A stretch of DNA of 37,478 nucleotides. Source: a virus. The stretch lies in IMG/VR virus record IMGVR_UViG_3300045988_150188, positions 1-37,478 of that record. The stretch is one strand, 5' to 3'. The translations under genes and the position numbers were made by a program. The notes under the pieces were generated by a model. It saw only the letters and a program-made list of their open reading frames with translations. It searched no databases and had not been told where the DNA came from. Below are positions 5,854 to 37,478 of this stretch, one piece after another (the stretch's first letter is position 1; each line of letters opens with the position of its first letter).

Positions 5854-6480
5854 TCAACTCATCCGCGTGAGAGGGCCACGGATAAGAATGATTGAGTTTT
5901 TGGGGGTATATAAACTAAATCCGATATTCAGCGATCGGAGTCGGTTTCCTGCGTCCTCCGCATCCGTTTCGCCTGCCGATAGGCCCTCTTGATGCGCTTG
6001 GCTCCCGCCGGAGTCGTCGCATATCTGAGGAGCGCCTGCTCCGTCCTCGGCTTGGATCTGCGCTCGGCCATCGGACTCCCTCGACCGGATGTAGACACGG
6101 TTGACCGTGGTCTTGTAGTCCTCAACGGCCTGCGCGTAGCGGGGATCCTTGAGGCACATCTCGGAGATGATAGAGGTCTTGATGTCCGCGACCTTCTGGC
6201 GCGCCTCCCGGACCTCCGGGTCGCTCTTGACCGATGCTTCCATCACGGCCAGCAACTCCGCGTTCGCATCGTGTTTGGGCTGGGCTTCGAGGGTCTTGAC
6301 CTTGGCTTCCAGCTCGTCCATGCGCTTGATCAGATCCGGCAGATACACGCCTTTTTTCATCAGCTCGGAGAAGGCCGTGTAGTTGTCGGACTGCTGCTCG
6401 TAGGTCAGTCCCGGCGCCGATGCCGTCGCAGGGGACTGCATGCCCTGGAGGGCCTTCATGACGTTGCTGTACTGCTCCAT
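5854..6480 (-). CDS. hypothetical coiled-coil protein. The ORF has no stop before 5854, but coding signal fades near 6075.
   Basis: ATG 6480 with GAGGCGATAGG SD. MEQYSNVMKALQ...VYIRSRE is protein-like. The tail overlapping 5928-6071 looks non-coding. Confidence 0.5.
   Translation of the reverse strand: MEQYSNVMKALQGMQSPATASAPGLTYEQQSDNYTAFSELMKKGVYLPDLIKRMDELEAKVKTLEAQPKHDANAELLAVMEASVKSDPEVREARQKVADIKTSIISEMCLKDPRYAQAVEDYKTTVNRVYIRSRESDGRAQIQAEDGAGAPQICDDSGGSQAHQEGLSAGETDAEDAGNRLRSLNIGFSLYTPKNSIILIRGPLTRMS
5895..5921 (-). promoter_or_regulatory. variant copy of the conserved promoter motif (GGGGTATATAAACTAAATCC on the plus strand)
   Basis: Similar to the three exact copies. About 55 nt upstream of the ATG at 5849. 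Confidence 0.45.
5928..6071 (-). CDS. small highly basic protein (~47 aa)
   Basis: ATG 6071 with GAGGGAG SD. High GC3, whereas the overlapping frame loses coding signal here. Confidence 0.5.
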   Translation of the reverse strand: MAERRSKPRTEQALLRYATTPAGAKRIKRAYRQAKRMRRTQETDSDR

Positions 6481-7352: not shown

Positions 7353-7380
7353 GAATCGCAGTATGTTCATATAAAGGAAA
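7353..7380 (-). promoter_or_regulatory. variant copy of the conserved promoter motif (CATATAAAGGAAATTCGG on the plus strand)
   Basis: Shares the GAAATTCGG tail with the consensus. Lies between a hairpin terminator and the 6552-7247 gene. Confidence 0.45.
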
Positions 7381-7408
7381 TTCGGAGGAGATGCGATCTC
7401 CTCCGGTT
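7372..7408 (-). terminator. 9-bp-stem hairpin (GGAGGAGAT-gcg-ATCTCCTCC) with flanking T tracts, directly after the stop at 7410
   Basis: Perfect inverted repeat seen in the sequence. ggttttcagggttttgtt is adjacent. Confidence 0.5.
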
Positions 7409-7409
7409 T

Positions 7410-7799
7410 TCAGGGTTTTGTTGGGTACTCAGGCCACTCGACCGTTATCGGGTAGCCCGCCTGAGACGGCACGGCATCGAGTGCGTCGAGATAGGCTTCG
7501 ATAGCCGTCGCTTTCGCCTCCCAATCTTTCGACGTGTCACCCTTGCGGATGGCCTTGAGAGCCGACAGATAGTCCTGTTCGATGGCCTTCTTCCTTCCCG
7601 CGATTTCACGACTGCGATACTTGATAAGGGCATCATTCGCCACGAGCGAATCCGTCTCAAGGTCATATCCCGTGCCTTCTGGGATATCATCGGGGACTTC
7701 GCGGAGGATTATATCTGGCGCATAACACTCGCTGGCTTCCTCAAGTGTGTTATATGGTATCATACAATAGACGATTCCATCCAATATCTGCACTATCAT
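7410..7799 (-). CDS. hypothetical protein (~129 aa) with AT-richer codon usage
   Basis: ATG 7799 with GGTGAG SD. GC3 is clearly lower than in the neighbours (compositional island). Confidence 0.55.
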   Translation of the reverse strand: MIVQILDGIVYCMIPYNTLEEASECYAPDIILREVPDDIPEGTGYDLETDSLVANDALIKYRSREIAGRKKAIEQDYLSALKAIRKGDTSKDWEAKATAIEAYLDALDAVPSQAGYPITVEWPEYPTKP

Positions 7800-7800
7800 T

Positions 7801-14581: not shown

Positions 14582-14589
14582 GCCTGAAA

Positions 14590-14650
14590 AGACGAGAGAC
14601 GGGGTATAAAAACGAAATTCAGAAAAATGGTTTGGAAGGGGTTTGGAGGT
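14590..14650 (-). promoter_or_regulatory. conserved promoter element copy (GGGGTATAAAAACGAAATTC plus GGTTTGGAAGGGGTTTGG on the plus strand)
   Basis: One of three near-identical copies. Confidence 0.6.
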
Positions 14651-14654
14651 ATGA

Positions 14655-15128
14655 TCAGATCGTGATGGACGTGTCGCGCTCCAGCTTGGGAGGGTCGTTC
14701 GTCCAGGTGTACTCCTGGGAGATCGTGATGTCGTCCAGAGTCGCATCGGCGGGAATCTCGAAGAGCTCTACGCTTCCGCCGTGTCCTCCGACCGCGACGG
14801 TGATCAGCTGGTAGCCGGGATGGAGCATGCCGTCGGATGTGCTGGAGTAGGTCAGGCCGTTGTATGTGGCCTTCCAAACCCAAATCCAATCGTTGGTCGT
14901 GATGCCGTCCTCATATGAGTCGTTGTAGACCATGTACTCCAGGACGAGGAATTGCATCCCTTCGTCCGCTTTGTACTCCAAACCGCTGGAGGAGGTAAAA
15001 CCATCCGCCAGGCTCAACTCGTAGTTGTAGCGTGCTTCCGGTTCGGAGCTGCCGCCGAGCGCAAGAGCAGCGATGGCAATGATGGCGATCGCGACGACCG
15101 CCCCGATGATGACCTTCTTAGAGACCAT
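14655..15128 (-). CDS. membrane-anchored protein (N-terminal TM plus beta-rich ectodomain, DUF4352-like), moron-like
   Basis: ATG 15128. TM helix KKVIIGAVVAIAIIAIAALALGG. Own TATA-like element at ~15160-15200. Confidence 0.6.
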   Translation of the reverse strand: MVSKKVIIGAVVAIAIIAIAALALGGSSEPEARYNYELSLADGFTSSSGLEYKADEGMQFLVLEYMVYNDSYEDGITTNDWIWVWKATYNGLTYSSTSDGMLHPGYQLITVAVGGHGGSVELFEIPADATLDDITISQEYTWTNDPPKLERDTSITI

Positions 15129-15210
15129 GCGGAAGGATTCCCCTTTTGAGTCTTAAATATGATGTTCCGAGATGTGTTGATTCAATAATTTATACCACAA
15201 TGGCGATGCG

Positions 15211-15236
15211 GATACACCGTCCGGAGAGGCCGGCGG
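15211..15236 (-). terminator. GC-rich hairpin downstream of tail gene 15270-16829
   Basis: CCGTCCGG...CCGGACGG inverted repeat. Confidence 0.3.
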
Positions 15237-15269
15237 ACGGCGATCTGGAGCGCTTAGAGACCTCCGGCC

Positions 15270-17205: not shown

Positions 17206-18923
17206 GCCCTCGACCCCCTGCGCCTGGATTCGGTCTGGAGCGGGTCATACACCGCCCTGGCGATCTTGCGCCCGTCGAGGTTGACGACCAGCTCGATGGG
17301 TCCTGACGACTGCCTGCCGGCCCCGCCCATCTCGGAGATGGCGGACTTCACGGCGTCCTTCATCAGGCTCACAGGAGAGACGACCTCGTACTCGCGGGTA
17401 TTGTCGCCGAGGATATAGGGCATCGGATTGTTGGGTGCGACCGCTCCTCCGGATGCGAGGCCGAGCGCGCCCTTGATCTTGGAGACGGCTTTGCCCGGCA
17501 AGGATGTTATGCCTCCGACAGGGTCCTCCACGAAGGATGTGACACCTCCAACGAGGCCATCCTTCAACTCACGGACTTTGGATATCATATCCTCGATCTT
17601 GCCCAGGACCGTATCCACGATCTCCTTGATCTTGTCCCATACGGCCTTGATAGGGTCCATGATGTGGTCCTTGAACTTCTGGCCTGCCGTCTGGATGACT
17701 CCCCACACGGTCTCGGCGATGGTCTGGATTCCTTTCCAGACGTTCGTGGCGAATCCCGATATCCCTCCCCACACGGTCTCGGCGATGGTCTGGATTCCTT
17801 TCCAGACGTTCGTGGCGAATCCCGATATCCCTCCCCATACGGTCTGCGCGACACTCTGGATGGTGGTCCAGACCGTGGTGGCGACACCAGAGATGGTCGT
17901 CCAGACTGTTGAGCCCACCCCCTGCAGAGTGGACCATACCGTGGAGCCTACGGATTGGATGGTCGTCCATGTGTCCCCTCCGAATTTCGTGATCTTGCTC
18001 CAGGCTTCGCCGCCCCACTTGCCGACGTTCTCGAAGACTCCTTTGATCTTGTCCTTGATGCCCGTCAGGGAGAAATTGTCGAGGAAAGCGCGGATCTTCT
18101 GCCCGATCTCCTCCCCGAGCTTGGAAGCGTCCTCCATGCCTTCCTTGAGCTTGTCGGCCTGCTCCGCATCGCCGGAGTTGGACATATCCAAGGTGTTGAG
18201 CTTGTCGAAGCCCGCCAGCCCTGCGGATGTGGCCTCGACGACCTCGCCCATGGAATCGGCCGCATCCTTCGCCGACTCGGACGACGACTTGAAGACGTCT
18301 CCGAATCCGAGGAAGTTGGCGAGTGCGTTGATGCCGCTCTTTATCCACTCGACGACCTGCTTGAGTCCGTCGATGACCGGCTGGACCATACCCTTGATGA
18401 TCCCCCATATGAATGAGCGCAGTATGCGGATCTTTTCCAAGATCCATGTGATGCCGTCCACGACCTTGGAAACGATCGTCATGATGCCGTTGACCAGCGG
18501 AGCCGTGAAAGACCCGATCGTGGTCTTCAGCTTCTTGACGCTCTTCTGCATCTGCCCCGCGGCCTTGGAGTAGCCCTGCGGGTCGAACATCCGGGCCGTG
18601 TCCTTGGCGAACTGCCAGGCGACCTTGGCGGCCTTGGCTGCGATGGCGACCAGCGCTCCGACGACTCCGAGCTTGAAGAGTTTGGCCGCGCCGGAAGATT
18701 TGCCGAAGGCTCCGTCGATCTTGCTGGAGGACTCCTGCCATGTGTCGGACACCTTTTTGAATGTGGGCGAGATGGCCGACAACTTGGAGTTGAACGATGC
18801 CCATTTGGACTGCGACTTCTCCGATTTGTCGGCGGTCTGGTCGAGCTTGCGGTCGACCGCGTCCATGTCCCTCTCGAAGGACTTGGTGTCGGCCGTGACC
18901 TTGATCTTGATCTCGTCTGCCAT
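17202..18923 (-). CDS. tail tape measure protein (573 aa)
   Basis: ATG 18923 with GAGGT SD. Long alpha-helical protein with perfect 22-aa tandem repeats (TVWGGISGFATNVWKGIQTIAE). Confidence 0.85.
   Translation of the reverse strand: MADEIKIKVTADTKSFERDMDAVDRKLDQTADKSEKSQSKWASFNSKLSAISPTFKKVSDTWQESSSKIDGAFGKSSGAAKLFKLGVVGALVAIAAKAAKVAWQFAKDTARMFDPQGYSKAAGQMQKSVKKLKTTIGSFTAPLVNGIMTIVSKVVDGITWILEKIRILRSFIWGIIKGMVQPVIDGLKQVVEWIKSGINALANFLGFGDVFKSSSESAKDAADSMGEVVEATSAGLAGFDKLNTLDMSNSGDAEQADKLKEGMEDASKLGEEIGQKIRAFLDNFSLTGIKDKIKGVFENVGKWGGEAWSKITKFGGDTWTTIQSVGSTVWSTLQGVGSTVWTTISGVATTVWTTIQSVAQTVWGGISGFATNVWKGIQTIAETVWGGISGFATNVWKGIQTIAETVWGVIQTAGQKFKDHIMDPIKAVWDKIKEIVDTVLGKIEDMISKVRELKDGLVGGVTSFVEDPVGGITSLPGKAVSKIKGALGLASGGAVAPNNPMPYILGDNTREYEVVSPVSLMKDAVKSAISEMGGAGRQSSGPIELVVNLDGRKIARAVYDPLQTESRRRGSRA
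17702..17833. repeat. 66-bp perfect tandem duplication inside the tape measure gene
   Basis: cccacacggtctcggcgatggtctggattcctttccagacgttcgtggcgaatcccgatatccct twice in a row, plus a diverged third unit. Confidence 0.85.
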
Positions 18924-23170: not shown

Positions 23171-23195
23171 GGGTACAACCCCCCCTTGGGGTGGT

Positions 23196-23250
23196 TAAAA
23201 CGACGAGGATAGGGGTATAAAAACGAAATTCGGGATTAAGAGGTTTCAAG
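23196..23250 (-). promoter_or_regulatory. conserved promoter element copy (internal promoter before scaffold and capsid)
   Basis: aggggtataaaaacgaaattcgggattaagaggtttcaaggggttt on the plus strand. TATA ~43 nt before GTG 23170. Confidence 0.6.
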
Positions 23251-23257
23251 GGGTTTT

Positions 23258-27517: not shown

Positions 27518-28256
27518 TCATCCCTCCCACGGCGACCATGTGTGAGGCCATGCGTTCTTGGGTTTGAGGTCGTCGAAAAAGCCTTTGTAGAAATCGGCCA
27601 CATCCTTGTCGACGGTGATGACCGCCTGCTCGATCCTCGGATTTGTGTTGATATTGGCGGAGGACGTGACTGCGACTCCATGCATCCTGCCCCTTGTGTC
27701 CTTCCAGTACCCTGCCATGACTTTGGCATGGTTCCGTTGCATGCACAGGCGTCCGCCGTACTGCGGAAGCAGGTCGGCCAGATAGTCAAAGATGGCCATG
27801 TAGTGCTGGATGAAGATCTCCCCGACGTAGACATCGACCCGCTTGACTATGCTGCGATGCAGCCACTCTCCGATCTCCTGCGCATCCTCCATCGCCATGC
27901 ACCACGTGGAGAATAGGCAGTATTCGAGGGGATGCTGCTTGACGATGCCTCTCATGTAGGTGAGGAAATCGACGTCTCCTCCGGAGATGCAATGATATGT
28001 GTATCCGTCCTTGAGATGCCAGTCTAAGACCTCGTTCATATGTTGCTCGGACATGGCCTTGCGCATGATCGCACGCTGATGCGTCCTGCACGCACGGGCC
28101 TTGATCTGCTCTTCGGATGGTTCAGTCGCTCTGCGAGTCTTACGAGGTGTAGGAATCCCAAGGCTCTCGTCATCCAGATCATCAATCATGCAGATGTCGT
28201 CCGGATCGAACTCCTCAGTACCCTGGTTAATCAGGTCTTCATCAAGTTTGTCCACG
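27518..28256 (-). CDS. first late-operon protein, function unknown (~246 aa). Contains a CISGGDVDF motif (PAPS-reductase-like P-loop?).
   Basis: GTG 28256 with GGAGGG SD and a 6-nt spacer. The N-terminal part of table ORF 27518..28345 reads through the promoter. Confidence 0.55.
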
Positions 28257-28285
28257 GTTAACCCTCCGTTTAGGTGATGAAAAGA

Positions 28286-28340
28286 CGAGTCGGGGGGTAT
28301 AAAAACGAAATTCGGAAAAACAAGGGGAAATGGTTTGTCC
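28286..28340 (-). promoter_or_regulatory. conserved promoter element copy driving the packaging/head operon
   Basis: cggggggtataaaaacgaaattcggaaaaacaaggggaaatggtttg on the plus strand. TATA ~44 nt before GTG 28256. Confidence 0.65.
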
Positions 28341-28372
28341 GACATGGCACAAAAACATCCTCGTCATGTCGG
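28339..28372. promoter_or_regulatory. inverted repeat CCGACATG-N18-CATGTCGG upstream of the late promoter
   Basis: Seen in the sequence. Candidate regulator binding site. Confidence 0.4.
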
Positions 28373-28404
28373 GGTTTGCGAGGTCGACCGTTGTGTTTCA
28401 TCGA

Positions 28405-28440
28405 TGTGCCGACAAAACAGTATCGTTTTTGTCCGATATG
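28405..28440 (-). terminator. hairpin (GACAAAAC...GTTTTGTC) with T tracts at the end of the early operon
   Basis: Directly downstream (minus strand) of the last early gene's stop at 28446. Confidence 0.5.
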
Positions 28441-28445
28441 CATCA

Positions 28446-28667
28446 TCACATCAGCTCCCAGACGGCGAGATGGCAGGAGGTGTCCAGACGCTTGCGTCTG
28501 ATGTAGCCGAGCCACTTGAGACGGTCGAGCGCCGCGGCGATGTCGGCGTCATGGCGGTTCCTCCCCATCGCCTCCTCGATGTCCTTCATGGTCATGGGTC
28601 TAATGCGGAGATGCCTCACGATCTCCTGCTCTATGGGCGTCAGCGGCTGCATGACACCTCTGTCCAT
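28446..28667 (-). CDS. winged-helix transcriptional regulator paralog (~70 aa)
   Basis: EQEIVRHL...MTMKDIEEAMG...RLKWLGYIRR...VWELM. Member of the paralog family. Confidence 0.55.
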   Translation of the reverse strand: MDRGVMQPLTPIEQEIVRHLRIRPMTMKDIEEAMGRNRHDADIAAALDRLKWLGYIRRKRLDTSCHLAVWELM

Positions 28668-28807
28668 GCCCATGCGATGCCTGCGAGCCATGCTGATGCG
28701 CCTGCGACGATGCCCCCGGGCGTGCATATAGCCGCGAGGATGGAGACGACGGTCGCTCCGAGGACGATGACGGCGGATGCGAGGATGCGGTCTTCGCGTT
28801 CGGTCAT
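28640..28807 (-). CDS. small two-helix membrane protein (55 aa)
   Basis: ATGA overlap. GAGGAGG SD. Confidence 0.5.
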   Translation of the reverse strand: MTEREDRILASAVIVLGATVVSILAAICTPGGIVAGASAWLAGIAWAWTEVSCSR

Positions 28808-29037
28808 ATCCACTTCCTCCTCTGCTTCACGTTCCACCTGCCTATGGCCTCGATCCGCGACCGATACCTGCGCGTGTGTCTTCCGCAGTAGATGCACTGG
28901 ACACGGTAGCGGTAGTTCGTCCAGTCGTGGAGGTCCGGGTCGAACTCCTTGGTGACTATGAGACACACTCCGTCAGAGCATCTTTTGCATGGGAGGATAT
29001 GGGCATCGCTTAGGGGGGTCCTCTCCGTCTCGGTCAT
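28804..29037 (-). CDS. Cys-rich zinc-ribbon protein (77 aa)
   Basis: CKRC...C and C.YC motifs. Confidence 0.55.
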   Translation of the reverse strand: MTETERTPLSDAHILPCKRCSDGVCLIVTKEFDPDLHDWTNYRYRVQCIYCGRHTRRYRSRIEAIGRWNVKQRRKWI

Positions 29038-29350
29038 CGACCCTCCACTCCCATTCGCTCTGGTCCAACGCCTCGTCCATCGCGTCCCTGCGCTTCGCCA
29101 CCAGGTCCCAATCTCCCGATCCTATCGCCGCGAGGTAGTGGTGGTAGCACGTCTGCAGCCTCTTCCGCTTGTCCTCCGGCATGGTCGCTCCGGCCAGGAT
29201 GTCGTCGATGCACAGCGCGTAGTCCATCGCCCTGCGATGGGCACGGCGTTCCCGCTCCATCTCGTTTTGAAGTTTGCAACTATTGAAATAAAGGATGCTC
29301 GCGCAGATGATGGCGAGTATCCCAGATATCAGTGTGATCCAATCCGCCAT
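28973..29350 (-). CDS. membrane protein with N-terminal TM helix (~125 aa)
   Basis: MADWITLISGILAIICASILYF. GAGGTGAG SD. Confidence 0.5.
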   Translation of the reverse strand: MADWITLISGILAIICASILYFNSCKLQNEMERERRAHRRAMDYALCIDDILAGATMPEDKRKRLQTCYHHYLAAIGSGDWDLVAKRRDAMDEALDQSEWEWRVDDRDGEDPPKRCPYPPMQKML

Positions 29351-29355
29351 CCATC

Positions 29356-29526
29356 TCACCTCTCCCTCGTTCCCGATGCGTAGCTCCCGCATCCGAACCC
29401 CTCCGGGTCCCATCTGATCTGACAGCCGTTGTGTCTGCAGTACGGCGACAGTCCGCGCCACGTCAGGCTGTCGCACTCGTAGCATGTGAACCAGTCGCGG
29501 CTCATGAACGCGTGGATCTTGGCCAT
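29356..29526 (-). CDS. Cys-rich zinc-finger protein (~56 aa, below ORF-table cutoff)
   Basis: MAKIHAFMSRDWFTCYECDSLTWRGLSPYCRHNGCQ... GAGGTGGA SD with a 6-nt spacer. Confidence 0.45.
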   Translation of the reverse strand: MAKIHAFMSRDWFTCYECDSLTWRGLSPYCRHNGCQIRWDPEGFGCGSYASGTRER

Positions 29527-29747
29527 CGCTCATCCACCTCGAACATCATCGCTCCGACGATGTGCCTCCCGGCGAGGACACGCCTGGTGCCGGGCTTGGG
29601 GCCTTCGCTCATGACGGTCCTGTCGTTTGCGATGGCGTTCTCGATGTAGCAGAGTCTTTCCTGCGCCTCCTTCTGCGTCCCGTAGATCTCGTTGATGGCG
29701 AGGATGCTCTCGTGCGTCGGATAAACGCAGACACGCCATTGGGTCAT
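29502..29747 (-). CDS. hypothetical protein (~81 aa)
   Basis: ATGA overlap. GGGAGGAGAGGGGGG SD. Confidence 0.5.
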   Translation of the reverse strand: MTQWRVCVYPTHESILAINEIYGTQKEAQERLCYIENAIANDRTVMSEGPKPGTRRVLAGRHIVGAMMFEVDERWPRSTRS

Positions 29748-30109
29748 TCCCCCCTCTCCTCCCTTATCCACGCCTTCATCTTCTGCGTCCCTTGGATGAC
29801 CGCCTCCTCGAACTGGAGGTCCCCGGCATACCACGCCGTGTCCATCAGGAGGTCCTGGATCATGCCGACCTTCCTGTCGTACTCTTCGGGCATGAGACCT
29901 CTGATGCGGTCCAGCGCTTCTATTGCAGTATTTAGGGCGTTCCAGGTGATGTCCACATGATCGAGTTCGTCGGTCTCGTCATCCTCCCAGTCGTCATCCT
30001 CGTCGACCCCTGCGGGGGCCTCGACCCATTTGTGTATGATCCCGCAGTGAGAACAGTAGTAGATGTCCTCACTCTCTACCAGCAGCTCTCCGCAGATGGG
30101 GCATTTCAT
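29744..30109 (-). CDS. N-terminal zinc-ribbon protein with acidic linker (121 aa)
   Basis: MKCPICGEL...YYCSHCG. ATGA overlap. Confidence 0.55.
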   Translation of the reverse strand: MKCPICGELLVESEDIYYCSHCGIIHKWVEAPAGVDEDDDWEDDETDELDHVDITWNALNTAIEALDRIRGLMPEEYDRKVGMIQDLLMDTAWYAGDLQFEEAVIQGTQKMKAWIREERGE

Positions 30110-30276
30110 TCCGACCCCTTCTTCATCATCTTGTGGAATCTCCCGTTGCACGCCGGGCATAGCACCTTCTTGCCGATTGACCAGCCCTCCATGCGGAGCC
30201 GCTTCATCATCTCCTTCTTGGGGATCGATGCCCGCTCCCAGAAACGACACCGGTCGCACTGCCACTCTGTTATCAT
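30106..30276 (-). CDS. zinc-ribbon protein (56 aa)
   Basis: CDRC...CPAC. AAGGAGGCGGAGGA SD junction. Confidence 0.5.
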   Translation of the reverse strand: MITEWQCDRCRFWERASIPKKEMMKRLRMEGWSIGKKVLCPACNGRFHKMMKKGSE

Positions 30277-30473
30277 TCCTCCGCCTCCTTGAACGCCTTG
30301 TTGCATTCGCATCTCCTGAGCGCGCGCATCAGCCACCTCACCTCGTCCCATTCGAGACAGCACCTGCGCTCCTCCAGCCTGTCGTCCCAAACCGTCAGGG
30401 TCAGGCGACCGTCCTCCATCATGCGGACGGCGATCTGGAGGTCGTCGGACAGGTCGTAAGTCATCAGCGTCAT
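30273..30473 (-). CDS. small hypothetical protein (66 aa)
   Basis: GGGAGGA SD with a 6-nt spacer. TAATG overlap. Confidence 0.5.
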   Translation of the reverse strand: MTLMTYDLSDDLQIAVRMMEDGRLTLTVWDDRLEERRCCLEWDEVRWLMRALRRCECNKAFKEAEE

Positions 30474-30760
30474 TAGTCATCCTCCCGGGTCAGATCGTCT
30501 GCCATGCATCTGCACTGCTTGGCCAGTTCCTTACGGTCGGGGTAGTTGTCGGAGCAGACCGTCCACTGGATCGCGTACAACAGCTGGTCCATCGAGACCT
30601 CCAGCTCCGCTCTGGCCGTCGGCGTCAGATCCCCGAGGGTATTCGTTGCCATCCTCAACAGATGCAGTGCGATCCATTGCAACTCGGGCAGACGTTCGAT
30701 GTCGGGATCCTCGATCATCTCGTCGATGATGTCGGATTGATTCTTCGTCAGGACTTTCAT
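30473..30760 (-). CDS. hypothetical protein (95 aa)
   Basis: ATGA overlap. GAGGAGGA SD. Confidence 0.5.
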   Translation of the reverse strand: MKVLTKNQSDIIDEMIEDPDIERLPELQWIALHLLRMATNTLGDLTPTARAELEVSMDQLLYAIQWTVCSDNYPDRKELAKQCRCMADDLTREDD

Positions 30761-31092
30761 TCGTCATCCTCCTCGTCATCGTCGTCTTCCTCGTCGATCC
30801 CGTATGACTCCTCCTTCTCCTCCTCGGTGTCGCCGTCCCAATAGCCGACGAGCGTCACAAGACGCATGAGTCCCGCCTCGACGCCCGGACCGATGACGTA
30901 ACGACCGTAGTCGTCCACTTGGATGGTGTTGACCTCCGTCTCGATGCGGGTGTCGAACGTGCAGGATGACACCCTCCACCGGTCGGTGTCATGGAGGTAA
31001 TAGAACCCGATGGAGACCCAATCCCGATACTGGAGCCTGAAGCTGACCTTGTCCGCGATCCTCCCGGCGATGCGGTCGGCGAGTCTGGTCAT
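30757..31092 (-). CDS. hypothetical protein with poly-acidic C-terminus (111 aa)
   Basis: AAGGAGGCGGAGGA SD junction. Confidence 0.55.
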   Translation of the reverse strand: MTRLADRIAGRIADKVSFRLQYRDWVSIGFYYLHDTDRWRVSSCTFDTRIETEVNTIQVDDYGRYVIGPGVEAGLMRLVTLVGYWDGDTEEEKEESYGIDEEDDDDEEDDE

Positions 31093-31250
31093 TCCTCCGC
31101 CTCCTTTTCCAGATATTCGTACACGATCTCGTCGATGCAGTTGGCGCACAGCGGGATCCTCTTAGGGAAGCTCATATAGATCCTTCCCGCACCTGCTTCG
31201 TCGAGATCGAATCCCGTCTTGCATCTGGAGCATGCGATAAGGCAGGTCAT
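31089..31250 (-). CDS. zinc-ribbon protein (53 aa)
   Basis: CLIACSRC...CANC. Confidence 0.5.
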   Translation of the reverse strand: MTCLIACSRCKTGFDLDEAGAGRIYMSFPKRIPLCANCIDEIVYEYLEKEAEE

Positions 31251-31624
31251 CGCACCATCCTCCATCTGGCAGTGAAATGGTCGTCGCACAACTCGACGAC
31301 ATGGCCGTTGGCCTTCGGTCCGAGCCTGGCGGTCGGCTCTCCTGCGATGATGCGTCTCTTGTCGTTCATCCAGAAATTGAACTCCGGTGCGATCTCGCAC
31401 TGGCAGATCATCCCTTCGCGCATACAGTCCAACGCCTCCTCGAAGGACAGGCCCCACACGACCTCGCCGCAGTTGCGCAGGAGCAGCGATTGGAACCACT
31501 CCTTGTCGGGGTTCTTCGCGAGCAGCCGGTCTCCGTCCATCTTGTACTGCCAGTAGCCGTCGGTGATGGTCTTCCCGCGGAGCAATGCGACCATCGCCTC
31601 CTTCTGCGTCATGAACCGGCTCAT
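31247..31624 (-). CDS. DUF2829-like phage protein (125 aa)
   Basis: N-terminus MTQKEAMVALLRGKTITDGYW resembles the phage DUF2829 family (recalled from memory). Confidence 0.5.
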   Translation of the reverse strand: MSRFMTQKEAMVALLRGKTITDGYWQYKMDGDRLLAKNPDKEWFQSLLLRNCGEVVWGLSFEEALDCMREGMICQCEIAPEFNFWMNDKRRIIAGEPTARLGPKANGHVVELCDDHFTARWRMVR

Positions 31625-31776
31625 TCCTTGCCCCTCCCGAACGCTTTGGCGAGGTCAGGCCATCCCATGCACTCGCATGTCCTCTTGTCCTCTCTCGCGT
31701 CTCCTGACGGCCCCTGCATGTGCAGGGCGGAGAATCTGTCGGCCATGAGGACGGAGATGGTGGATGGTGTCCTCAT
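31621..31776 (-). CDS. small hypothetical protein (51 aa)
   Basis: ATGA overlaps on both sides. GGAGGAG SD. Confidence 0.4.
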   Translation of the reverse strand: MRTPSTISVLMADRFSALHMQGPSGDAREDKRTCECMGWPDLAKAFGRGKE

Positions 31777-32141
31777 TCGCTCTCCTCCAGCTTCTCCTTC
31801 TCCACCTCGTGGATGCTGACGAGGATCACCCTTGCGCACAGCACGTCGCTCGGCCTGACCATGATGGACTCGCGGTCGTAGCCGTCCTTGATGGTGATGA
31901 CATCGTCCCTCCTGTCCTGCGGCACGTCCAGCTTCGCCATGGCCTCGTCTGCTCTGTATTTGGTCTGGAAGAACAGGGAGGTCCCGTCGTCAGGGCCTCC
32001 GGGGATGGTGATGTCGAGGCACCACACCTTCCTGGACTGCTCCTCCGGCGTGGGCTTGGTGCAAGTCTGGTCGAGGACCTTGTCGGACAATCTGCCGTCA
32101 GAGTTGCCGAGGGTAGCACGTATGGGATCGAACAACCTCAT
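31773..32141 (-). CDS. hypothetical protein (122 aa)
   Basis: ATGA overlap. Confidence 0.5.
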   Translation of the reverse strand: MRLFDPIRATLGNSDGRLSDKVLDQTCTKPTPEEQSRKVWCLDITIPGGPDDGTSLFFQTKYRADEAMAKLDVPQDRRDDVITIKDGYDRESIMVRPSDVLCARVILVSIHEVEKEKLEESE

Positions 32142-32395
32142 TCGCCCACCATCCTGATGACATAGACCGACTCTATATGCTCCGGATTGACCGCCACATC
32201 CGAGACCTCTGTCGTGAATGTGGGTGAAAGAACCGGGCTACCGAACATCAACAATCTCTCTTTCCACCGTATCGCGTTGCGGATCGCGCTCGCGGTCTCC
32301 TGCGCTTCCTCCATGCTCTTGCAGGGGATCACCCAATCATCTCTGCTCACCATGATGATCCGGACGGCGAACTCCAGTGTCTTTTCCGGCGTCAT
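32138..32395 (-). CDS. hypothetical protein (85 aa)
   Basis: ATGA overlap. Confidence 0.5.
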   Translation of the reverse strand: MTPEKTLEFAVRIIMVSRDDWVIPCKSMEEAQETASAIRNAIRWKERLLMFGSPVLSPTFTTEVSDVAVNPEHIESVYVIRMVGE

Positions 32396-32787
32396 TCTCC
32401 CATCCTCCTGTTGGCTCTCTCCGCGAATTCCTGCAGCCACGATGGGCAGGTGAGATCGAATGCGTTGGACGTCCAGTATGAGAATCCGCAACTGCATTGT
32501 ATGCAGACGGAATCGACACCCCACGTCAACACGCTGGCATCCAATCCGATCGACTCAAGGGCGCGCATGTCGAATGCACCGTTGTCGTCCATCGCATCCA
32601 TAAGGTCCATCATCAGATCCCCATCATCGGCAAACGCGATGTCTTTGGCTGTAAGGCGACGCCCGCATATCGGGCAGGGCCTGAATCCGTCGGGGCCTTT
32701 GCGCATCATCTTCTCCCAATTCTCCGCCTTCGCTTGGAGTCCGGCGTAGTGGCAGTCCCGAGCCTCGTCTTCACTGAATATGCCCAT
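32392..32787 (-). CDS. Cys-rich protein (131 aa)
   Basis: CPICGRR, CIQCSC, CPSW motifs. Confidence 0.55.
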   Translation of the reverse strand: MGIFSEDEARDCHYAGLQAKAENWEKMMRKGPDGFRPCPICGRRLTAKDIAFADDGDLMMDLMDAMDDNGAFDMRALESIGLDASVLTWGVDSVCIQCSCGFSYWTSNAFDLTCPSWLQEFAERANRRMGE

Positions 32788-33108
32788 TCAGTCCACCTTC
32801 TCCCAATCATCTGCGGTCATGTCGCCTACGTTGAGTATCCTCACAAACGCGTCCTCATAGGCGGGATATTTGGTGTTGATGATGGCCGGTGCCGGACCGG
32901 ACATGTCCAGCACGGCATCGCGCCTGTATTCGGCCCATCTTCTGCGCCTGAACTGCGAGTACTTCGCACCACACCTCACACGTGCGAGGACCCACTCGAA
33001 CGTCCCGATCTTCGGAAGGTACTCTGCCGATTCTTCCAGAATCTTGTCGATGCGTCCGCCGGACTTCCAAACGTCCAGCTTCTCTATCATCTCCATGGCA
33101 TGCGTCAC
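32788..33108 (-). CDS. hypothetical protein (106 aa). In frame with 33181-33429 across a TAA with coding-like intervening codons and no SD.
   Basis: GTG 33108 lacks an SD. The 24 codons between the TAA at 33181 and the GTG are high-GC3 and protein-like. Confidence 0.45.
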   Translation of the reverse strand: MTHAMEMIEKLDVWKSGGRIDKILEESAEYLPKIGTFEWVLARVRCGAKYSQFRRRRWAEYRRDAVLDMSGPAPAIINTKYPAYEDAFVRILNVGDMTADDWEKVD

Positions 33109-33180
33109 AGATCTGGTGATGACCGTCTCAAGGGCGACGGAGACGTCTTGGATCTCCTTGATGTCATCCTCGTCCAGGAC

Positions 33181-33429
33181 TTAGTCCAGCTTCAACTCGT
33201 GCAGGTCCTTGGTTTTCCTCACGAGATCGCCGCAGATGATCACGAACTTCACGGCCTGTATCAGGGAGGCCATCTCTGTAGAGCGATCTACATTCATGAC
33301 CAGCCCCGCGAGTCCTCTGACCCTTGCTGTCAACTCCTTGAGGCCGTCGTCATCGCATATGGTGTCAAGCATGTCGAGCATATTCAACATGGCCTCGATC
33401 TCCTCGATGGCTGACTTATCCTCCGTCAT
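33181..33429 (-). CDS. hypothetical protein (82 aa), ends at TAA
   Basis: ATGA overlap. GGAGGACGAGG SD. Confidence 0.5.
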   Translation of the reverse strand: MTEDKSAIEEIEAMLNMLDMLDTICDDDGLKELTARVRGLAGLVMNVDRSTEMASLIQAVKFVIICGDLVRKTKDLHELKLD

Positions 33430-33605
33430 TCCTCGTCCTCCATCTGCTTGTAGTACGGGCATCTTCCCTCGTTGCACATCTCGCAGTCCTCGTCGGTCAT
33501 GGCATTCTCCATCTCGCACTCGAAATCGAGGTATCCGGGGCCGTCGAAGTCCACCTTGACCTCTCCGACGAAGGCGTGGATGCAGTCGCCGCACTGGTCG
33601 GTCAC
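33426..33605 (-). CDS. Cys-rich acidic zinc-binding protein (~59 aa)
   Basis: GTGA overlap. CGDC...C.MC...C motifs. Confidence 0.45.
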   Translation of the reverse strand: MTDQCGDCIHAFVGEVKVDFDGPGYLDFECEMENAMTDEDCEMCNEGRCPYYKQMEDEE

Positions 33606-33787
33606 TCGCATCCCTCCTTGGTCCATCTGCCGTATTTCCTCTTGGCCGCAGCTGTCAGTCTGGTCGGACATTGCATCGAGCGACGTGCGAGCTGCGGATG
33701 GGCGCAGAACATGTTGACTCCGAGATCGTCGTCGGCGTAATCCACCTGGAACATGCAGCCTTTGCATTCCTCGGGGCAGGGACTCAC
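33602..33787 (-). CDS. Cys-rich zinc-ribbon protein (~61 aa)
   Basis: CPEECKGC...QCP. GGAGGG SD with a 6-nt spacer. Confidence 0.45.
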   Translation of the reverse strand: MSPCPEECKGCMFQVDYADDDLGVNMFCAHPQLARRSMQCPTRLTAAAKRKYGRWTKEGCE

Positions 33788-33957
33788 TCGCATCCCTCCA
33801 TGATCTCCTTGCCGCTCCTCTGATCCGCCGGCACTCCGGCGTAGTCGTAGATGGCGTTGGCCCACTCCATCACGGTCCCCATCTCCTCGTCGTCCATCAA
33901 CTCCATCGCGTAGGACATCATCCTGTCCGCCAGATCGATCAATCCGTCAGTAGTCAT
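33784..33957 (-). CDS. small acidic protein (57 aa, below table cutoff)
   Basis: MTTDGLIDLADRMMSYAMELMDDEEMG... Ends EGCE* on the same junction sequence as 33602. Confidence 0.4.
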   Translation of the reverse strand: MTTDGLIDLADRMMSYAMELMDDEEMGTVMEWANAIYDYAGVPADQRSGKEIMEGCE

Positions 33958-34132
33958 CGTATGTCATCTCCCTCATAGCCTCGCTTACTGCTTCCATTGT
34001 CTTGATGTAGAGTTTCATCGGGACCCCCGCCGGGGGGTCCTTGATGCAGACGACCTCCCCCATGGCGGTCATCGCTCCGAGCCTGACCGCGTCCATGAGC
34101 GCGGTCTTCTCGTCTGTTGTGATCTCGGTCAT
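33947..34132 (-). CDS. small hypothetical protein (61 aa)
   Basis: TGA-ATG adjacent junction. GAGGGA SD. Confidence 0.45.
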   Translation of the reverse strand: MTEITTDEKTALMDAVRLGAMTAMGEVVCIKDPPAGVPMKLYIKTMEAVSEAMREMTYDDY

Positions 34133-34333
34133 TCAATCCCTCGCGTATGACGAGCATCCGTCGCATGTGCGGTCGTAGGCGACGCCTCCCATGAGTCTGC
34201 ATGTCCCCATGACGAAGACCTCGCCTCCTGCCATCAGTCCGCTGTCGATGTCGATCTTGAGCCATCTGCAGCGCTTCCCGTCGGGGAAGACCCTGTCGAT
34301 GTCTCCGACCGTGTCCATGTCCATCTGTCTCAC
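34133..34333 (-). CDS. Cys-containing small protein (66 aa)
   Basis: GTG with GGAGGGCGATAGA junction. Confidence 0.45.
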   Translation of the reverse strand: MRQMDMDTVGDIDRVFPDGKRCRWLKIDIDSGLMAGGEVFVMGTCRLMGGVAYDRTCDGCSSYARD

Positions 34334-34539
34334 TCTATCGCCCTCCATGTGGCGAGCCATGTGGTGCATCCGGGCTTCCAGACCGGCTCGCCGTCCTCGA
34401 CGAATTTGTATTTGGCCAGCTTTTTCAGCGACCTGCGGACGTAGGTCGGACTGCATCCGGTGTCGGTGCAGATCTGTGTGACCGTCATCGGTCCGTGCTT
34501 GCGGAGGGAGGCCAGGACGATCTCCTGGGATTGGGTCAT
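34330..34539 (-). CDS. winged-helix regulator paralog (69 aa)
   Basis: ...TVTQICTDTGCSPTYVRRSLKKLAKYKFV...TWRAIE. Confidence 0.55.
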   Translation of the reverse strand: MTQSQEIVLASLRKHGPMTVTQICTDTGCSPTYVRRSLKKLAKYKFVEDGEPVWKPGCTTWLATWRAIE

Positions 34540-34567
34540 GCGAATGCCTCCAATATCGCTGTCATCA

Positions 34568-34789
34568 TCAGCGCACCTCCCAACGGCGTGTTCCATTGGA
34601 GTCCACGGAGCGGGTCACATGACCCTCCTCGTACAGTCTCCGGAGCATGCTCCCGACCGTGTTCGAACCGGTCACCCACCTGTCGCCGAGGGCGTCCAGC
34701 ACCTCCGACGCGGTGGACGGGCGTCCGAGCGTCTTGAGCGCGTCGTAGACCATGCCGGCACGACTGCCCGTGAGGATGGTCCCGGTCAA
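34568..34789 (-). CDS. winged-helix regulator paralog (~73 aa, TTG start)
   Basis: MVYDALKTLGRPSTASEVLDALG...RRWEVR. GGGAGG SD with a 7-nt spacer. Confidence 0.5.
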   Translation of the reverse strand: MTGTILTGSRAGMVYDALKTLGRPSTASEVLDALGDRWVTGSNTVGSMLRRLYEEGHVTRSVDSNGTRRWEVR

Positions 34790-35004
34790 TCGACCGCCTC
34801 CCAGATCTGGATCCATCTCTGGGCGATGCCCTTGCCGTAGGCAGGGTTGGCGCGGTAACCGACCATGCGGATGCTTCCTTGGCTCTTGAGGACGGAGATC
34901 GCGTTGGCGACCCTCCACGGCGGGAGTCCGGTCCTGCGTGCGATCTCGACGATGGTGGCGCGTCCGAGGTCGCATATGACGCAGTAGACTCTCGACACGG
35001 ACAT
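34786..35004 (-). CDS. winged-helix regulator paralog (72 aa)
   Basis: ...IVEIARRTGLPPWRVANAISVLKSQG...IWEAVD. GGAGGGAG SD. Confidence 0.55.
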   Translation of the reverse strand: MSVSRVYCVICDLGRATIVEIARRTGLPPWRVANAISVLKSQGSIRMVGYRANPAYGKGIAQRWIQIWEAVD

Positions 35005-35300
35005 CGCTCTCCCTCCATGCGGACGTACTGCGAGCATGAGCGAAAATCGCACAGGTCCTCGTCGGTGATGTCCTTGGAGCCGCACTCGTAGACCATCTCG
35101 CCGTCGACGTAGGCGTGTGCGCATGTGGAGCATTGGCTCTCGATGCGGATGTCCTGGAGGCGCCATCCATCCGTCAGTCCGGCGCGGATGCGTCCGATCA
35201 GCGCCACGACGCTCCTGCATCCGTCGATGGTCTCTGTGCGGGTCTCGGTGGCCGCGTTGACCTTGTGACGGCAGTAGGTCATGACGATCCTGTCCATCAT
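34990..35300 (-). CDS. Cys-rich protein (~100 aa) with no in-frame stop before the next gene (C-terminus undefined)
   Basis: ATG 35300 with GGGAGGA SD and a 6-nt spacer. 9 Cys in 100 aa. The frame stays open to 34536 but loses protein character after ~35000. Confidence 0.4.
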
Positions 35301-35485
35301 GATCGGTCCTCCCTCGGGATCAGGTCCTGCGCCTCCATCCACGCGTTGAGCGTCAGGATGGCGTTCTGGACCTCCAGGAGCCTTCCGTCGAGTTCGGGCT
35401 TGGCTCCGAACCTCGCGTCGGCGATGGCTCTCGCGAGGGCCTTTCCGCGGGCGCGGACGATGCACAGCTTCTCGGTCTGGTCCAT
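35297..35485 (-). CDS. small hypothetical protein (62 aa)
   Basis: TGATG overlap. Confidence 0.45.
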   Translation of the reverse strand: MDQTEKLCIVRARGKALARAIADARFGAKPELDGRLLEVQNAILTLNAWMEAQDLIPREDRS

Positions 35486-35721
35486 CAGGCGTCACCGTCC
35501 ATCTGCTTGAGCATGGCCTTGGCCTTGACGCCGGTGATCCATCCCTTCCCGCATGTGCCGGGTGCGATGGCGAGTTCCTTGGATGCCACCATCTTGAGCA
35601 TCAGGGACGATGCAATGGAGCGGTCGATGCCGAGGTGGTCCATGATCTCCTGCTGTGTGTGGGCCGTCTCGCAGTACGAGAGGATGCGGTCTTTCAGCTG
35701 GGTGACGGTCGCCTCGGTCAC
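35485..35721 (-). CDS. winged-helix-like protein (78 aa)
   Basis: GTG with GGGAGGCGATAGA junction. ...TQQEIMDHLGIDRSIASSLMLKMV... Confidence 0.5.
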   Translation of the reverse strand: MTEATVTQLKDRILSYCETAHTQQEIMDHLGIDRSIASSLMLKMVASKELAIAPGTCGKGWITGVKAKAMLKQMDGDA

Positions 35722-35930
35722 TCTATCGCCTCCCAAACACGGGTGGGCTTGGAGGTCTTGGGGGCCTTCCGAATCTCCTTGACGCGGACCCTGCCGGCTT
35801 CGACAAGGATGTGGATCGTGTTGAGGATTGAATCGTAGTTGGACCGGGGGATGCGGTCGACCATCTCGCTGATGGTGGCGGGTCCCTCGGCGAGGGCGGC
35901 CATGACCAGTGGCTCGTAGATCGCGCTCAT
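35718..35930 (-). CDS. winged-helix regulator paralog (70 aa)
   Basis: ...TISEMVDRIPRSNYDSILNTIHILVEAGRV...VWEAIE. Confidence 0.55.
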   Translation of the reverse strand: MSAIYEPLVMAALAEGPATISEMVDRIPRSNYDSILNTIHILVEAGRVRVKEIRKAPKTSKPTRVWEAIE

Positions 35931-36130
35931 TCGATGACCTCCCAGATCGGAGCATATGCGTAGGGGGTCAGCCTCTCGAAACGGAGGATCCTCGCTTCTC
36001 CGCGCGCCTCCATCCTGCGGAGCGCACGACGGACTCCGTTCTCGGATGCGCGAGGGATGCGGGCCACAATCTGCCTGACGCTCCCGGGACCCTGCTTGAG
36101 GGCCTCGCGGACGTCCTCCTCGTAGGTCAT
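35927..36130 (-). CDS. winged-helix regulator paralog (67 aa)
   Basis: ...SVRQIVARIPRASENGVRRALRRMEARGE...IWEVIE. Confidence 0.55.
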   Translation of the reverse strand: MTYEEDVREALKQGPGSVRQIVARIPRASENGVRRALRRMEARGEARILRFERLTPYAYAPIWEVIE

Positions 36131-36264
36131 TCCGCTCCCTCCTGCCATGATGCGATCAGGTCGCAGGGACAATGCCTCGGGATCATCTCCGCATCCTCGG
36201 TGACCATCTCGCACGCTCCGCCGTCGTCGTGACAGCGGTTGCACGTCCAGACGTGGATCCTCAT
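36127..36264 (-). CDS. zinc-ribbon mini-protein (45 aa)
   Basis: CNRC...CPC. GGAGGA SD with a 6-nt spacer. Confidence 0.45.
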   Translation of the reverse strand: MRIHVWTCNRCHDDGGACEMVTEDAEMIPRHCPCDLIASWQEGAE

Positions 36265-36467
36265 GGACGGTCCTCCGGTGTCGCACCGCAGAACGGGCAG
36301 GACCGGATCGTCATGCCCTTGCGGGGATTGTCGGTCATGCGGAGCATCAGCTGGCCCTTGGTGCCGGTGTAGACCTGTCCACGCAGGACGCAGACGTCCA
36401 TGTCGCGGCAACATGCGGCGATGCCGGTCTTGGTGACGGCCAGACGGCCGTCGTAGGTGGCTGTCAT
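36261..36467 (-). CDS. Cys-containing small protein (68 aa)
   Basis: ATGA overlap. CPFCG motif. Confidence 0.45.
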   Translation of the reverse strand: MTATYDGRLAVTKTGIAACCRDMDVCVLRGQVYTGTKGQLMLRMTDNPRKGMTIRSCPFCGATPEDRP

Positions 36468-36719
36468 AGGTTGTGCCCCCATTGGTTGACGGTCGGCTCC
36501 CCGTCGCCGAGCCATACGGTCTTGAGCGGTGCCACGACTCCGGATGCGGAGACGATGGAGATCTTGCACCATGCCTCGGGCTTGATGCCCCGGCGGTCGC
36601 ACTCGGCGAGGATGTCCGACATGCGGTCCTCGATGCGCTGCTGGTCGCTGGCGACCTTGATCTTGATCGAGTCTGCGCCGTAGGGCGTCACGAGGTAGCG
36701 AGAGATCTTGGAGTTCACT
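36464..36719 (-). CDS. hypothetical protein (~84 aa)
   Basis: GTGA overlap. Confidence 0.45.
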
Positions 36720-36939
36720 CGACCACGCTCCTGATCAGGCGGCGGGGGCGGTGGTTGCCGGATGTGGCCACGTTGGTGATGTAACCGCGGACTTGCAGGT
36801 AGTCGCATGCGCTCTTGACGCGCCTGTGGGTGATGCCGGTGGCATCCGCGATCTCCTGCGTGGTCTTGCCGGGGTACATCGTGATATGATCGAGGACGCG
36901 GTACCTGATGCTCGTCGCGTCGGACTCGAATGGGATCAT
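36715..36939 (-). CDS. winged-helix regulator (74 aa)
   Basis: RYRVLDHI...TTQEIADATGITHRRVKSACDYLQVRGYI. Confidence 0.55.
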   Translation of the reverse strand: MIPFESDATSIRYRVLDHITMYPGKTTQEIADATGITHRRVKSACDYLQVRGYITNVATSGNHRPRRLIRSVVE

Positions 36940-37285: not shown

Positions 37286-37431
37286 GCGTACTCCCTCCTG
37301 CGGAGCCAGGCATCGCGTTCCTTTCTGGCCGCGTCCCTGCGCATGGCTTCGATGCGTGCTTCCTCGGCCTCGATCTCCGCCTTGTACTCGTCGGAGTACT
37401 CGGTGTCGACGATGGCCCTGCATCCGGGCAT
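37282..37431 (-). CDS. small charged coiled-coil protein (~49 aa). Its start lies in the terminal repeat.
   Basis: High-GC3 frame MPGCRAIVDTEYSDEYKAEIEAEEARIEAMRRDAARKERDAWLRRREYA. ATGA overlap with the next gene. Confidence 0.35.
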   Translation of the reverse strand: MPGCRAIVDTEYSDEYKAEIEAEEARIEAMRRDAARKERDAWLRRREYA

Positions 37432-37478
37432 GCGTGGCTGATGACGGTGCGTCCGCACATGGCGAGCCTCGATCCGAG
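37424..37478. repeat. 3' copy of the 55-bp terminal direct repeat
   Basis: Exact copy of bases 1-55. ORFs continue in frame across the junction. Confidence 0.9.

Follow-up and report, generated by a model that had tools for sequence, protein, structure and literature searches.

Near-identical copies of a probable archaeal TATA-box promoter precede the structural operons of a tailed virus

Introduction

The expression of structural genes from several copies of a conserved promoter is well established in bacteriophages. In P2/186 and Mu, several morphogenetic operons are each headed by a conserved promoter with a site for a small phage-encoded activator, whose gene resides in the early or middle region of the genome; the late promoters of P2/186 depend on Ogr/B and those of Mu on C. 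In T7-type phages, a promoter of 23 bp is repeated before the late genes and read by the RNA polymerase of the phage. In archaea, the generic core promoter includes a TFB recognition element, a TATA box and an initiator, the TATA box is centred about 26–27 nt upstream of the transcription start, leaderless mRNAs are frequent and oligo-T tracts terminate transcription. Repeated core promoters have been described for SIRV2 and other viruses of Sulfolobales, where near-identical TATA-box cores recur within a genome, embedded in virus-specific flanks, and where inverted repeats at or next to the core were read as regulator sites (PMC11065993). The same work quotes TTTAWATA as the archaeal TATA-box consensus and describes the TFB recognition element of Sulfolobus as purine-rich, with G at –6 and A at –3 (PMC11065993).

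Our literature searches found no paper on transcription control by viruses of Methanomassiliicoccales, an order of gut methanogens, and neither a promoter consensus for this order nor a description of the motif that is the subject of this study. Here, we have analysed a cassette that is repeated along the late region of a tailed virus and that is probably a promoter of archaeal type.

Results

The virus and its relatives

The window, by which we refer to the whole stretch of 37,478 nucleotides that was analysed, is the complete circular genome (~37.4 kb) of a tailed virus. An exact terminal direct repeat is the usual mark of a circular genome that was assembled as a linear contig, and we regard the window as a circularly closed assembly because its first and last 55 nt (1–55 and 37424–37478) are identical. 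Its nearest relative is Caudoviricetes sp. vir215 (NC_092586.1), with 88% identity over 65% of a 24-kb query, which is recorded as a gut-metagenome virus with Methanomassiliicoccales in the host field. On the basis of this field of the nearest GenBank record, the host of the window virus would be an archaeon. Mapping of the vir215 proteins onto the window shows that both genomes are collinear, with every gene located on the minus strand. Integrase and early genes occupy 37423–28446 and 4195–82, and the genes for packaging, head, tail and fibres extend from 28255 to 7410. By its gene content the virus is temperate, since it encodes an integrase at 1256–2350. When looking for a host-flanked provirus via integrase-encoding contigs and metagenome matches, only free viral genomes were returned, and a search for relatives with the portal protein retrieved close relatives only. 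A more distant relative, IMGVR_UViG_3300045988_091867 (091867), contains a capsid protein that is 56% identical.

Several other features of these genomes were noted in the course of the analysis. The tape measure gene harbors three tandem 66-nt repeats at 17699–17896, two of them identical and the third 70% identical, and the tape measure gene of 091867 contains tandem repeats of 33 nt. A second promoter-like family consists of 53-nt direct repeats at 2844–2896 and 3975–4027 (96% identical), which on the minus strand read GTAATTGCTAT..AAATAGTTATATATACTGGAATTGCCATATAGTAATT, with direct AATTGCYAT repeats on either side of a TATA-like box, and which bracket a three-gene module adjoining the integrase. 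These repeats are present in the near-identical contigs L353, L354 and L356 and absent from vir215 and L355. In vir215, a reverse transcriptase gene (30027–31061) follows the tail fibre gene, which suggests a diversity-generating retroelement. The segment around 7346–7800 of the window is a variable region between otherwise collinear genomes, because homologues of this reverse transcriptase and its neighbour gene (L001 29630–31450) are both missing there.

A cassette repeated at the start of structural operons

An exact 20-mer, GGGGTATAAAAACGAAATTC, occurs three times in the window, at sites that we term P1, P2 and P3 (Table 1, where plus-strand coordinates are listed). All three occurrences fall inside the ranges for which an initial sequence-only reading of the window had claimed a threefold repeat, and none is expected by chance, with no match in 100 shuffles. 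In a repeat search of the window, the family extends to 43 nt at 77–88% identity. On the coding strand, the three copies share an ungapped register, GAATTTCG-TTTTTATA-CCCC-N4-CTCGTC-KTTT-MA-N3-(+1), with A at +1, and about 32 of the 36 positions between GAATTTCG and the predicted start are identical. The motif TTTWTATA occurs four times on both strands of the window, at P1–P3 and at a variant described below, and each of the three occurrences of CTCGTCKTTT is found at P1–P3.

Table 1. Positions of the cassettes, of their sequence elements and of adjacent genes in the window.
Feature	Position	Strand	Remarks
Last gene before P1	28446..28673	-	75-aa stand-alone winged-helix protein, 100% identical to vir215_00035
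P1 cassette	28256..28336	-	Before packaging module; in 189-nt gap after 75-aa gene
P1 distal AAACC	28332-28336	-	
P1 20-mer	28294-28313	-	
P1 palindrome CGAAtTTCG	28306-28314	-	
P1 TATA box TTTTTATA	28298-28305	-	Followed by CCCC
P1 CTCGTC	28284-28289	-	
P1 predicted start	near A 28275	-	~20-nt leader; GGAGGG 28262-28267; GTG start 28255
First gene after P1	27518..28255	-	245 aa; weak endonuclease-like PHROG match
P2 cassette	23171..23256	-	Fills 87-nt gap from minor head protein stop (23258) to scaffold gene
P2 AAACC, two, 5 nt apart	23252-23256 and 23242-23246	-	
P2 20-mer	23212-23231	-	TATA 23216-23223; CTCGTC 23202-23207
P2 predicted start	A 23192	-	Leader ~20 nt with GGGGGGG; GTG start 23170
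First gene after P2	22640..23170	-	Head scaffolding protein, 99% identical to vir215_00041
P3 cassette	14582..14646	-	Before baseplate/fibre module
P3 CCAAACC-N4-CCAAACC	14635-14646	-	
P3 20-mer	14601-14620	-	TATA 14605-14612; CTCGTC 14591-14596
P3 ATG	14581	-	A exactly 24 nt after TATA box (23 intervening nt)
First gene after P3	13637..14581	-	314-aa protein, phrog_11157
P5, marginal member: GAATTTCCTTTATATGAACA / GAATTTCCTTTATATG	7364..7383	-	Shares GAATTTC; TATA-like box 7369-7376
P5 ATG	7345	-	31-aa CxxC ORF; 24 nt after box
P4, diverged member: GGATTTAGTTTATATACCCC	5903..5922	-	53 nt before ATG 5849 of 377-aa gene
P4 TATA TTTATATA	5907-5914	-	Perfect TTTAWATA

The copies P1–P3, which are 5.1 and 8.6 kb apart, are each placed at the start of an operon, within intergenic gaps (28256–28445, 23171–23257 and 14582–14654) and in the same orientation as the genes downstream. 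They form AT-rich islands in a genome with a G+C content of about 60%. Of two degenerate copies that had been suggested in addition, the one claimed at 5895–5921 was recovered as a copy with three mismatches at 5903–5922 (P4), whose counterpart in the relative L355, GGATTTCGTTTATATACCCC, is closer to the consensus. The other, claimed at 7353–7380, is found in a promoter-like position and geometry (P5), but its relationship by sequence is marginal: in an ungapped alignment to the 20-mer it displays six mismatches, and since sites with up to seven mismatches arise 2–10 times per shuffled genome, it is not significant by sequence alone. We have thus rejected P5 as a member on the strength of its sequence, and it is by position and geometry that it may be counted as a marginal member of the family. 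All five sites are confined to the structural half of the genome, between 5903 and 28313, and none is found in the early, integrase and lysogeny region. Between the end of the 20-mer and the start codon there are 38 (P1), 41 (P2), 19 (P3), 53 (P4) and 18 nt (P5), a range of 18–53 nt that is in rough agreement with the 23–57 nt upstream of an operon estimated at the outset.

Sequences surrounding the 20-mer are shared to different degree. A GG-rich segment, originally described as part of the repeat, can be recognized on the coding strand of all three copies from the elements AAACC and CCCCTT, whose arrangement differs between copies. An upstream element, proposed to read CCAAACC-N-CCAAACC and to bind a viral activator, exists literally at P3 but not upstream of every copy: AAACC-N6-AAACC is unique to P3, with two AAACC at P2 and one at P1. 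Common to the copies is a single AAACC, 26–28 nt upstream of the TATA box, which is kept in relatives despite changed surroundings.

The genes downstream of the cassettes were assigned from their homology to vir215 and from matches to PHROG families. The first gene after P1, whose position is taken by non-homologous genes in relatives, is followed by genes for the large terminase, the portal and minor head proteins. Downstream of the scaffold gene at P2 are those for the major capsid protein, neck, tail tube, tape measure and distal tail, and the first gene after P3 precedes genes for an 887-aa glycine-rich protein, a 580-aa fibre-like protein and other tail-tip proteins. With the cassettes heading the operons for packaging, head and tail and with an early and lysogeny region devoid of them, their distribution is that of a late class. 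The term 'late' in the sequence-only reading is in this respect supported by the operons that are headed by the copies; as a statement on timing it draws on gene content.

The vicinity of the sites contains additional structures and reading frames. Two minus-strand hairpins are located between the winged-helix gene and P1 (28339–28445), an imperfect one at ~28409–28435 and a perfect 8-bp stem, CCGACATG...CATGTCGG, at 28339–28372, which is accompanied by T-runs and embedded in a segment that is kept in all relatives. A role as terminator is conceivable for this hairpin, as is one as packaging signal immediately upstream of the terminase module. A perfect 9-bp hairpin at 7384–7404 (GGAGGAGAT-CGC-ATCTCCTCC) directly follows the stop codon of a 135-aa gene and abuts P5, and a different, equally perfect hairpin, GGGGGATGCACTCCCCC, is found at the P5 site of vir215 (L001 ~31462–31478), such that the structure is kept and the sequence is not. 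Near P4, a 208-aa open reading frame called on near-identical contigs (5854–6480) runs through the site, with its last ~60 residues appearing non-coding; vir215 has no gene annotated at this position, and an alternative basic frame of 46 residues (MAERRSKPRTEQ...TDSDR, 5930–6069), which ends at 5930, would leave P4 intergenic. Finally, the P2 and P3 units are separated by an inserted 157-aa gene with an N-terminal hydrophobic segment (14655–15128), which shares only 25% identity with its positional counterpart in vir215. The gene is preceded, within 15129–15269, by a distinct AT-rich promoter-like sequence, ATATTTAAGA, about 28 nt before its ATG, and looks like an accessory gene that is expressed independently.

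The cassette as putative archaeal promoter

The repeats are probably copies of one strong archaeal TATA-box promoter, which would direct transcription of the minus strand by the host RNA polymerase together with the host TATA-binding protein (TBP) and transcription factor B (TFB). The initial proposal of a TATA-box cassette on the minus strand ahead of operons has held up in this analysis, with copies that are intergenic, co-oriented with the genes downstream as expected for archaeal core promoters, spaced in archaeal manner and syntenic in relatives. When compared to TTTAWATA, the putative TATA box TTTTTATA of P1–P3 matches at seven of eight positions and TTTATATA of P4 at all eight. At P1 and P2, where an A is located 23–24 nt after the box, the mRNA would have a leader of about 20 nt that contains a ribosome site of the GGAGGG type. 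A leaderless mRNA is predicted for P3, because the A of its ATG is located 24 nt after the TATA box, and the equivalent distance to the ATG at 7345 predicts the same for P5. A purine-rich TFB recognition element as defined for Sulfolobus, which may not be that of the host, is absent at the expected positions, where GAATTTCG contains A at –6 and T at –3; the closest core that is rich in purines, CGAA, is found 6–9 nt upstream of the TATA box. Transcription of the plus strand was rejected, as this strand contains no genes and as its upstream side is G-rich (GGGG) and does not fit a G at –6 and an A at –3.

In the proposed mechanism, TBP would bind TTTTTATA at about –31 to –24, with TFB and the polymerase contacting the flanking GAATTTCG and CCCC-N4-CTCGTC. 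The DNA would open over the T-rich stretch at –9 to –6, and transcription would start at the A located 24 nt after the TATA box. P1 would head a transcription unit for packaging, P2 one extending from head to tail tube and P3 one for baseplate and fibres, while the diverged P4 and the marginal P5 would head two small units further downstream. As the copies at the start of the three large units are near-identical, the morphogenetic genes would be expressed strongly and together. Leaderless mRNAs are predicted to originate from P3 and P5, and mRNAs with leaders of 20–33 nt and ribosome-binding sites from P1, P2 and P4. The evidence at hand comprises the sequence identity of the cassettes, their position, orientation and geometry and their conservation across relatives; it is from these properties that we infer initiation at the cassettes, their late timing and the contribution of any factor beyond the basal machinery. 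The copies could also be alike owing to recent duplication or gene conversion, without selection acting on each base.

Conservation and exchange among relatives

In the independent GenBank annotation of vir215, a copy precedes vir215_00036 by 38 nt, the scaffold gene by 41 nt and vir215_00054 by 19 nt. Among GenBank phages, the full 20-mer is restricted to vir215, with the matched regions under no annotated feature, and a metagenome search with the full 20-mer returned only contigs of this virus type, with no chance matches elsewhere. Carriers are vir215, five IMG/VR contigs from one metagenome and five further metagenome contigs, most of them 37–40 kb long, with two to three copies in each contig that was recovered at length. 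A scan of viral contigs with the 15-mer TAAGTTTTTATAGTG was too unspecific to inform, and a scan of bacterial and archaeal genomes with GAATTTCGTTTTTATAC provided at least 120 matches, chance ones in bacteria, with no Methanomassiliicoccales among the matches listed.

The cassette is kept at the same syntenic sites in vir215 and in at least ten other related genomes. In 21 distinct versions, collected from at least 12 related genomes, variation of the 44-nt core is limited to the N4 spacer, apart from two single changes that occur at P3 in vir215-type genomes. Outside the core, 5–6 of 40 columns are variable upstream and 26 of 96 in the P3 coding sequence. The points at which homology with relatives is lost coincide exactly with the P1 start codon (28253–28255) and the upstream edge of P3 (14644), and the cassette therefore survives the exchange of modules. 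The cassettes also appear to exchange sequence with one another, because the upstream module AAACCCCTTCCAAACCATTTT / AAACCCCTTCCAAACC, which is located at P3 in the window, is shifted to P2 in the metagenome relative L365.

In more distant genomes, the sites are found with other sequences. 091867 contains promoter-like AT-rich boxes at the same three positions as the window. At its P1 site the flanks are homologous to those of the window, both upstream (CAAACCCTTTCCCTTG corresponding to CAAACCATTTCCCCTTG) and downstream (TCATCACCTTAACGGAGGGTCAAACCGTG corresponding to TCATCACCTAAACGGAGGGTTAACCGTG), and at its P3 site, which has a different core, 23 nt precede the ATG of the homologous gene, as in the window. 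The three sites of 091867 share the sequence TTAAC-N3-GTTAA, which in two of them is placed at about –27 to –15, and all four occurrences of GTTAAC in 29 kb are found in the three late promoter regions. Promoter-like sites are found at equivalent positions in the relatives L360 and L145, with TTAAC-N3-GTTAA again as the shared element; their late promoters carry TTAACGGCGTTAA or TTAACGCCGTTAA, and the two copies in L360 share about 35 nt. Judged by these comparisons, the putative promoter sites are old, and their signature is lineage-specific and common within each genome. This pattern fits a lineage-specific DNA-binding regulator, gene conversion, or both.

Candidate regulators and alternative readings

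Conservation of the cassette exceeds what should be required by TBP and TFB. Since this coincides with lineage-specific signatures at the same sites, it likewise suggests a lineage-specific DNA-binding regulator, gene conversion between the copies, or a combination of the two. We consider a regulator encoded by the virus itself to be a plausible proposal, although somewhat short of an even chance. The early region (28446–36939) encodes at least seven small stand-alone winged-helix-like proteins of 67–82 aa, and small CxxC proteins are also abundant. The seven winged-helix candidates are encoded at 28446–28673, 36715–36939, 35927–36130, 35485–35721, 34786–35004, 34568–34816 and 34330–34539. Two of the winged-helix candidates pass Pfam cut-offs (MarR_2 at 36715–36939 and HTH_5 at 34330–34539). 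The gene that immediately precedes P1 encodes another of the seven, for which a single-sequence model (pLDDT 82) shows a helix-helix-helix-strand-strand fold that resembles the DNA-binding domains of the MarR family with a TM-score of about 0.8, and which is a candidate regulator by its position. Homologues of the seven winged-helix candidates were not detectable in the 29 kb of 091867 examined, which is consistent with a co-variation of regulator and promoter type but does not link the two specifically. Possible binding sites include CGAAtTTCG abutting the TATA box, CCCC-N4-CTCGTC and the AAACC 26–28 nt upstream.

The same observations could alternatively reflect strong constitutive promoters without a dedicated regulator and without temporal 'late' control beyond the basal machinery, which are alike only by gene conversion or recombination. 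The movement of upstream segments between sites (AAACCCCTTCCAAACCATTTT, at P3 of the window versus P2 of L365) and the recombination junctions abutting the cassettes are compatible with this possibility, as is the presence of the strong promoter core of Sulfolobus viruses on highly expressed host genes (PMC11065993). We nevertheless regard it as rather unlikely, given that at the same three sites each of three lineages carries its own signature, which in two cases is a clear palindrome such as dimeric proteins bind, that the family is confined to the structural region and that relatives vary mostly in the N4 spacer and not evenly along the core.

A combined function, where the cassette serves as terminator and promoter, appears possible but doubtful to a similar extent. 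Here, T5 runs (CGTTTTTATA, with TTGTTTTTCC or CATTTTTCTG upstream) would stop transcription of the preceding operon and the TATA box would restart it, thereby insulating the modules. Each copy contains one or two runs of at least five T on the coding strand, 30–70 nt from the upstream stop codon, and hairpins are placed before P1 (8 bp, 28339–28372) and before P5 (perfect 9 bp, 7384–7404), with an equivalent at P5 of vir215. However, a terminator scan, although of bacterial design, identified none at the cassettes and a total count at chance level, and the RNA fold of the cassettes is ordinary, with z-scores of –0.4, +1.1 and –0.6. Termination would in any case add to the promoter reading and not replace it.

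The conserved flanks could also constitute an operator, at which a dimeric winged-helix repressor bound to CGAAnTTCG would block the initiation complex and keep the late genes silent in the lysogen. Such control would suit a virus that is temperate by gene content (integrase at 1256–2350) and that encodes at least seven small winged-helix-like proteins. In P1 and P2, the TATA box is directly adjoined by the 9-bp palindrome, at the place where TFB should sit, the 13-bp palindrome of relatives overlaps the TATA box at about –27 to –15, and in other archaeal viruses a role as repressor sites has been attributed to inverted repeats that overlap the TFB recognition element (PMC11065993). Still, we find this version improbable: the palindrome, which is intact in P1 and P2 and also in the P3 copy of vir215, is broken in P3 (TGAATTTCG), P4 and P5 of the window, and it is short, with CGAANTTCG also found at two unrelated coding positions (3856 and 17981).

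That the cassette would not be an archaeal promoter at all is highly improbable. In favor of this reading, AT-rich islands in a genome of 60% G+C are a trait of many kinds of elements. However, a bacterial sigma-70 promoter was rejected with no match at any copy and a regional count below the shuffle mean, and a structured RNA with no Rfam or tRNA matches and fold z-scores near zero. The copies are dispersed at operon starts, syntenic in relatives and devoid of flanking inverted repeats or target duplications, which does not suit iterons of a replication origin, mobile-element ends or a packaging site.

Discussion

If the cassette acts as the archaeal promoter that we propose, the late region of the virus comprises five putative transcription units, whose start sites are likewise predicted, and our analysis names a small number of candidate genes for regulators and of candidate sites for their binding. 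A promoter that is compact and probably strong, and that exists in leaderless and leadered versions, could serve as a genetic part for Methanomassiliicoccales. The occurrence of different signatures at the same sites between lineages offers a natural experiment on the joint change of a promoter set and its regulator. A more far-reaching idea, which we advance as speculative and doubtful, is that tailed viruses of Methanomassiliicoccales might use lineage-specific 'late promoter codes' at three fixed sites, each read by a cognate viral winged-helix regulator. In this equally tentative scheme, the code of the window virus would be GAATTTCG-TATA-CCCC-N4-CTCGTC and that of sister lineages the palindrome TTAAC-N3-GTTAA, with the protein encoded at 28446–28673 as positional candidate. 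If true, such codes would represent in archaea what dedicated late activators are in bacteriophages; to our knowledge, a system of this type has not been described for archaeal tailed viruses. The general understanding of archaeal or viral transcription is unchanged by our finding.

Among archaeal viruses, those of Sulfolobales resemble the window virus in a core that is repeated within the genome, in virus-specific flanks and in inverted repeats near the core. Their promoters, however, belong to immediate-early anti-defence genes of crenarchaeal rod- or spindle-shaped viruses, whereas here they precede structural modules in a tailed virus of a presumed Thermoplasmatota methanogen, with an upstream element that is not purine-rich. 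The arrangement of multi-copy promoters heading morphogenetic operons is shared with P2/186 and Mu, but in these phages sigma-70 polymerase recognizes –10/–35 elements, in contrast to the archaeal TATA-box geometry observed in our case, where the regulator is only a candidate. With T7, the cassette has in common that a long near-invariant promoter is repeated along the late region and changes as a set between related viruses, although no viral RNA polymerase is evident in the window, whose largest proteins are tail proteins, and although the core is a generic TATA box. A generic archaeal core promoter, finally, would account for the TATA match, the distance of 24 nt from the box to the A of the ATG at two sites and the T-rich sequence upstream of the start, but not for the lack of a purine-rich element beside the box or for about 20 extra conserved positions, which the basal machinery is not known to need. 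As a regulatory element of a virus, the cassette is useful but of an ordinary kind.
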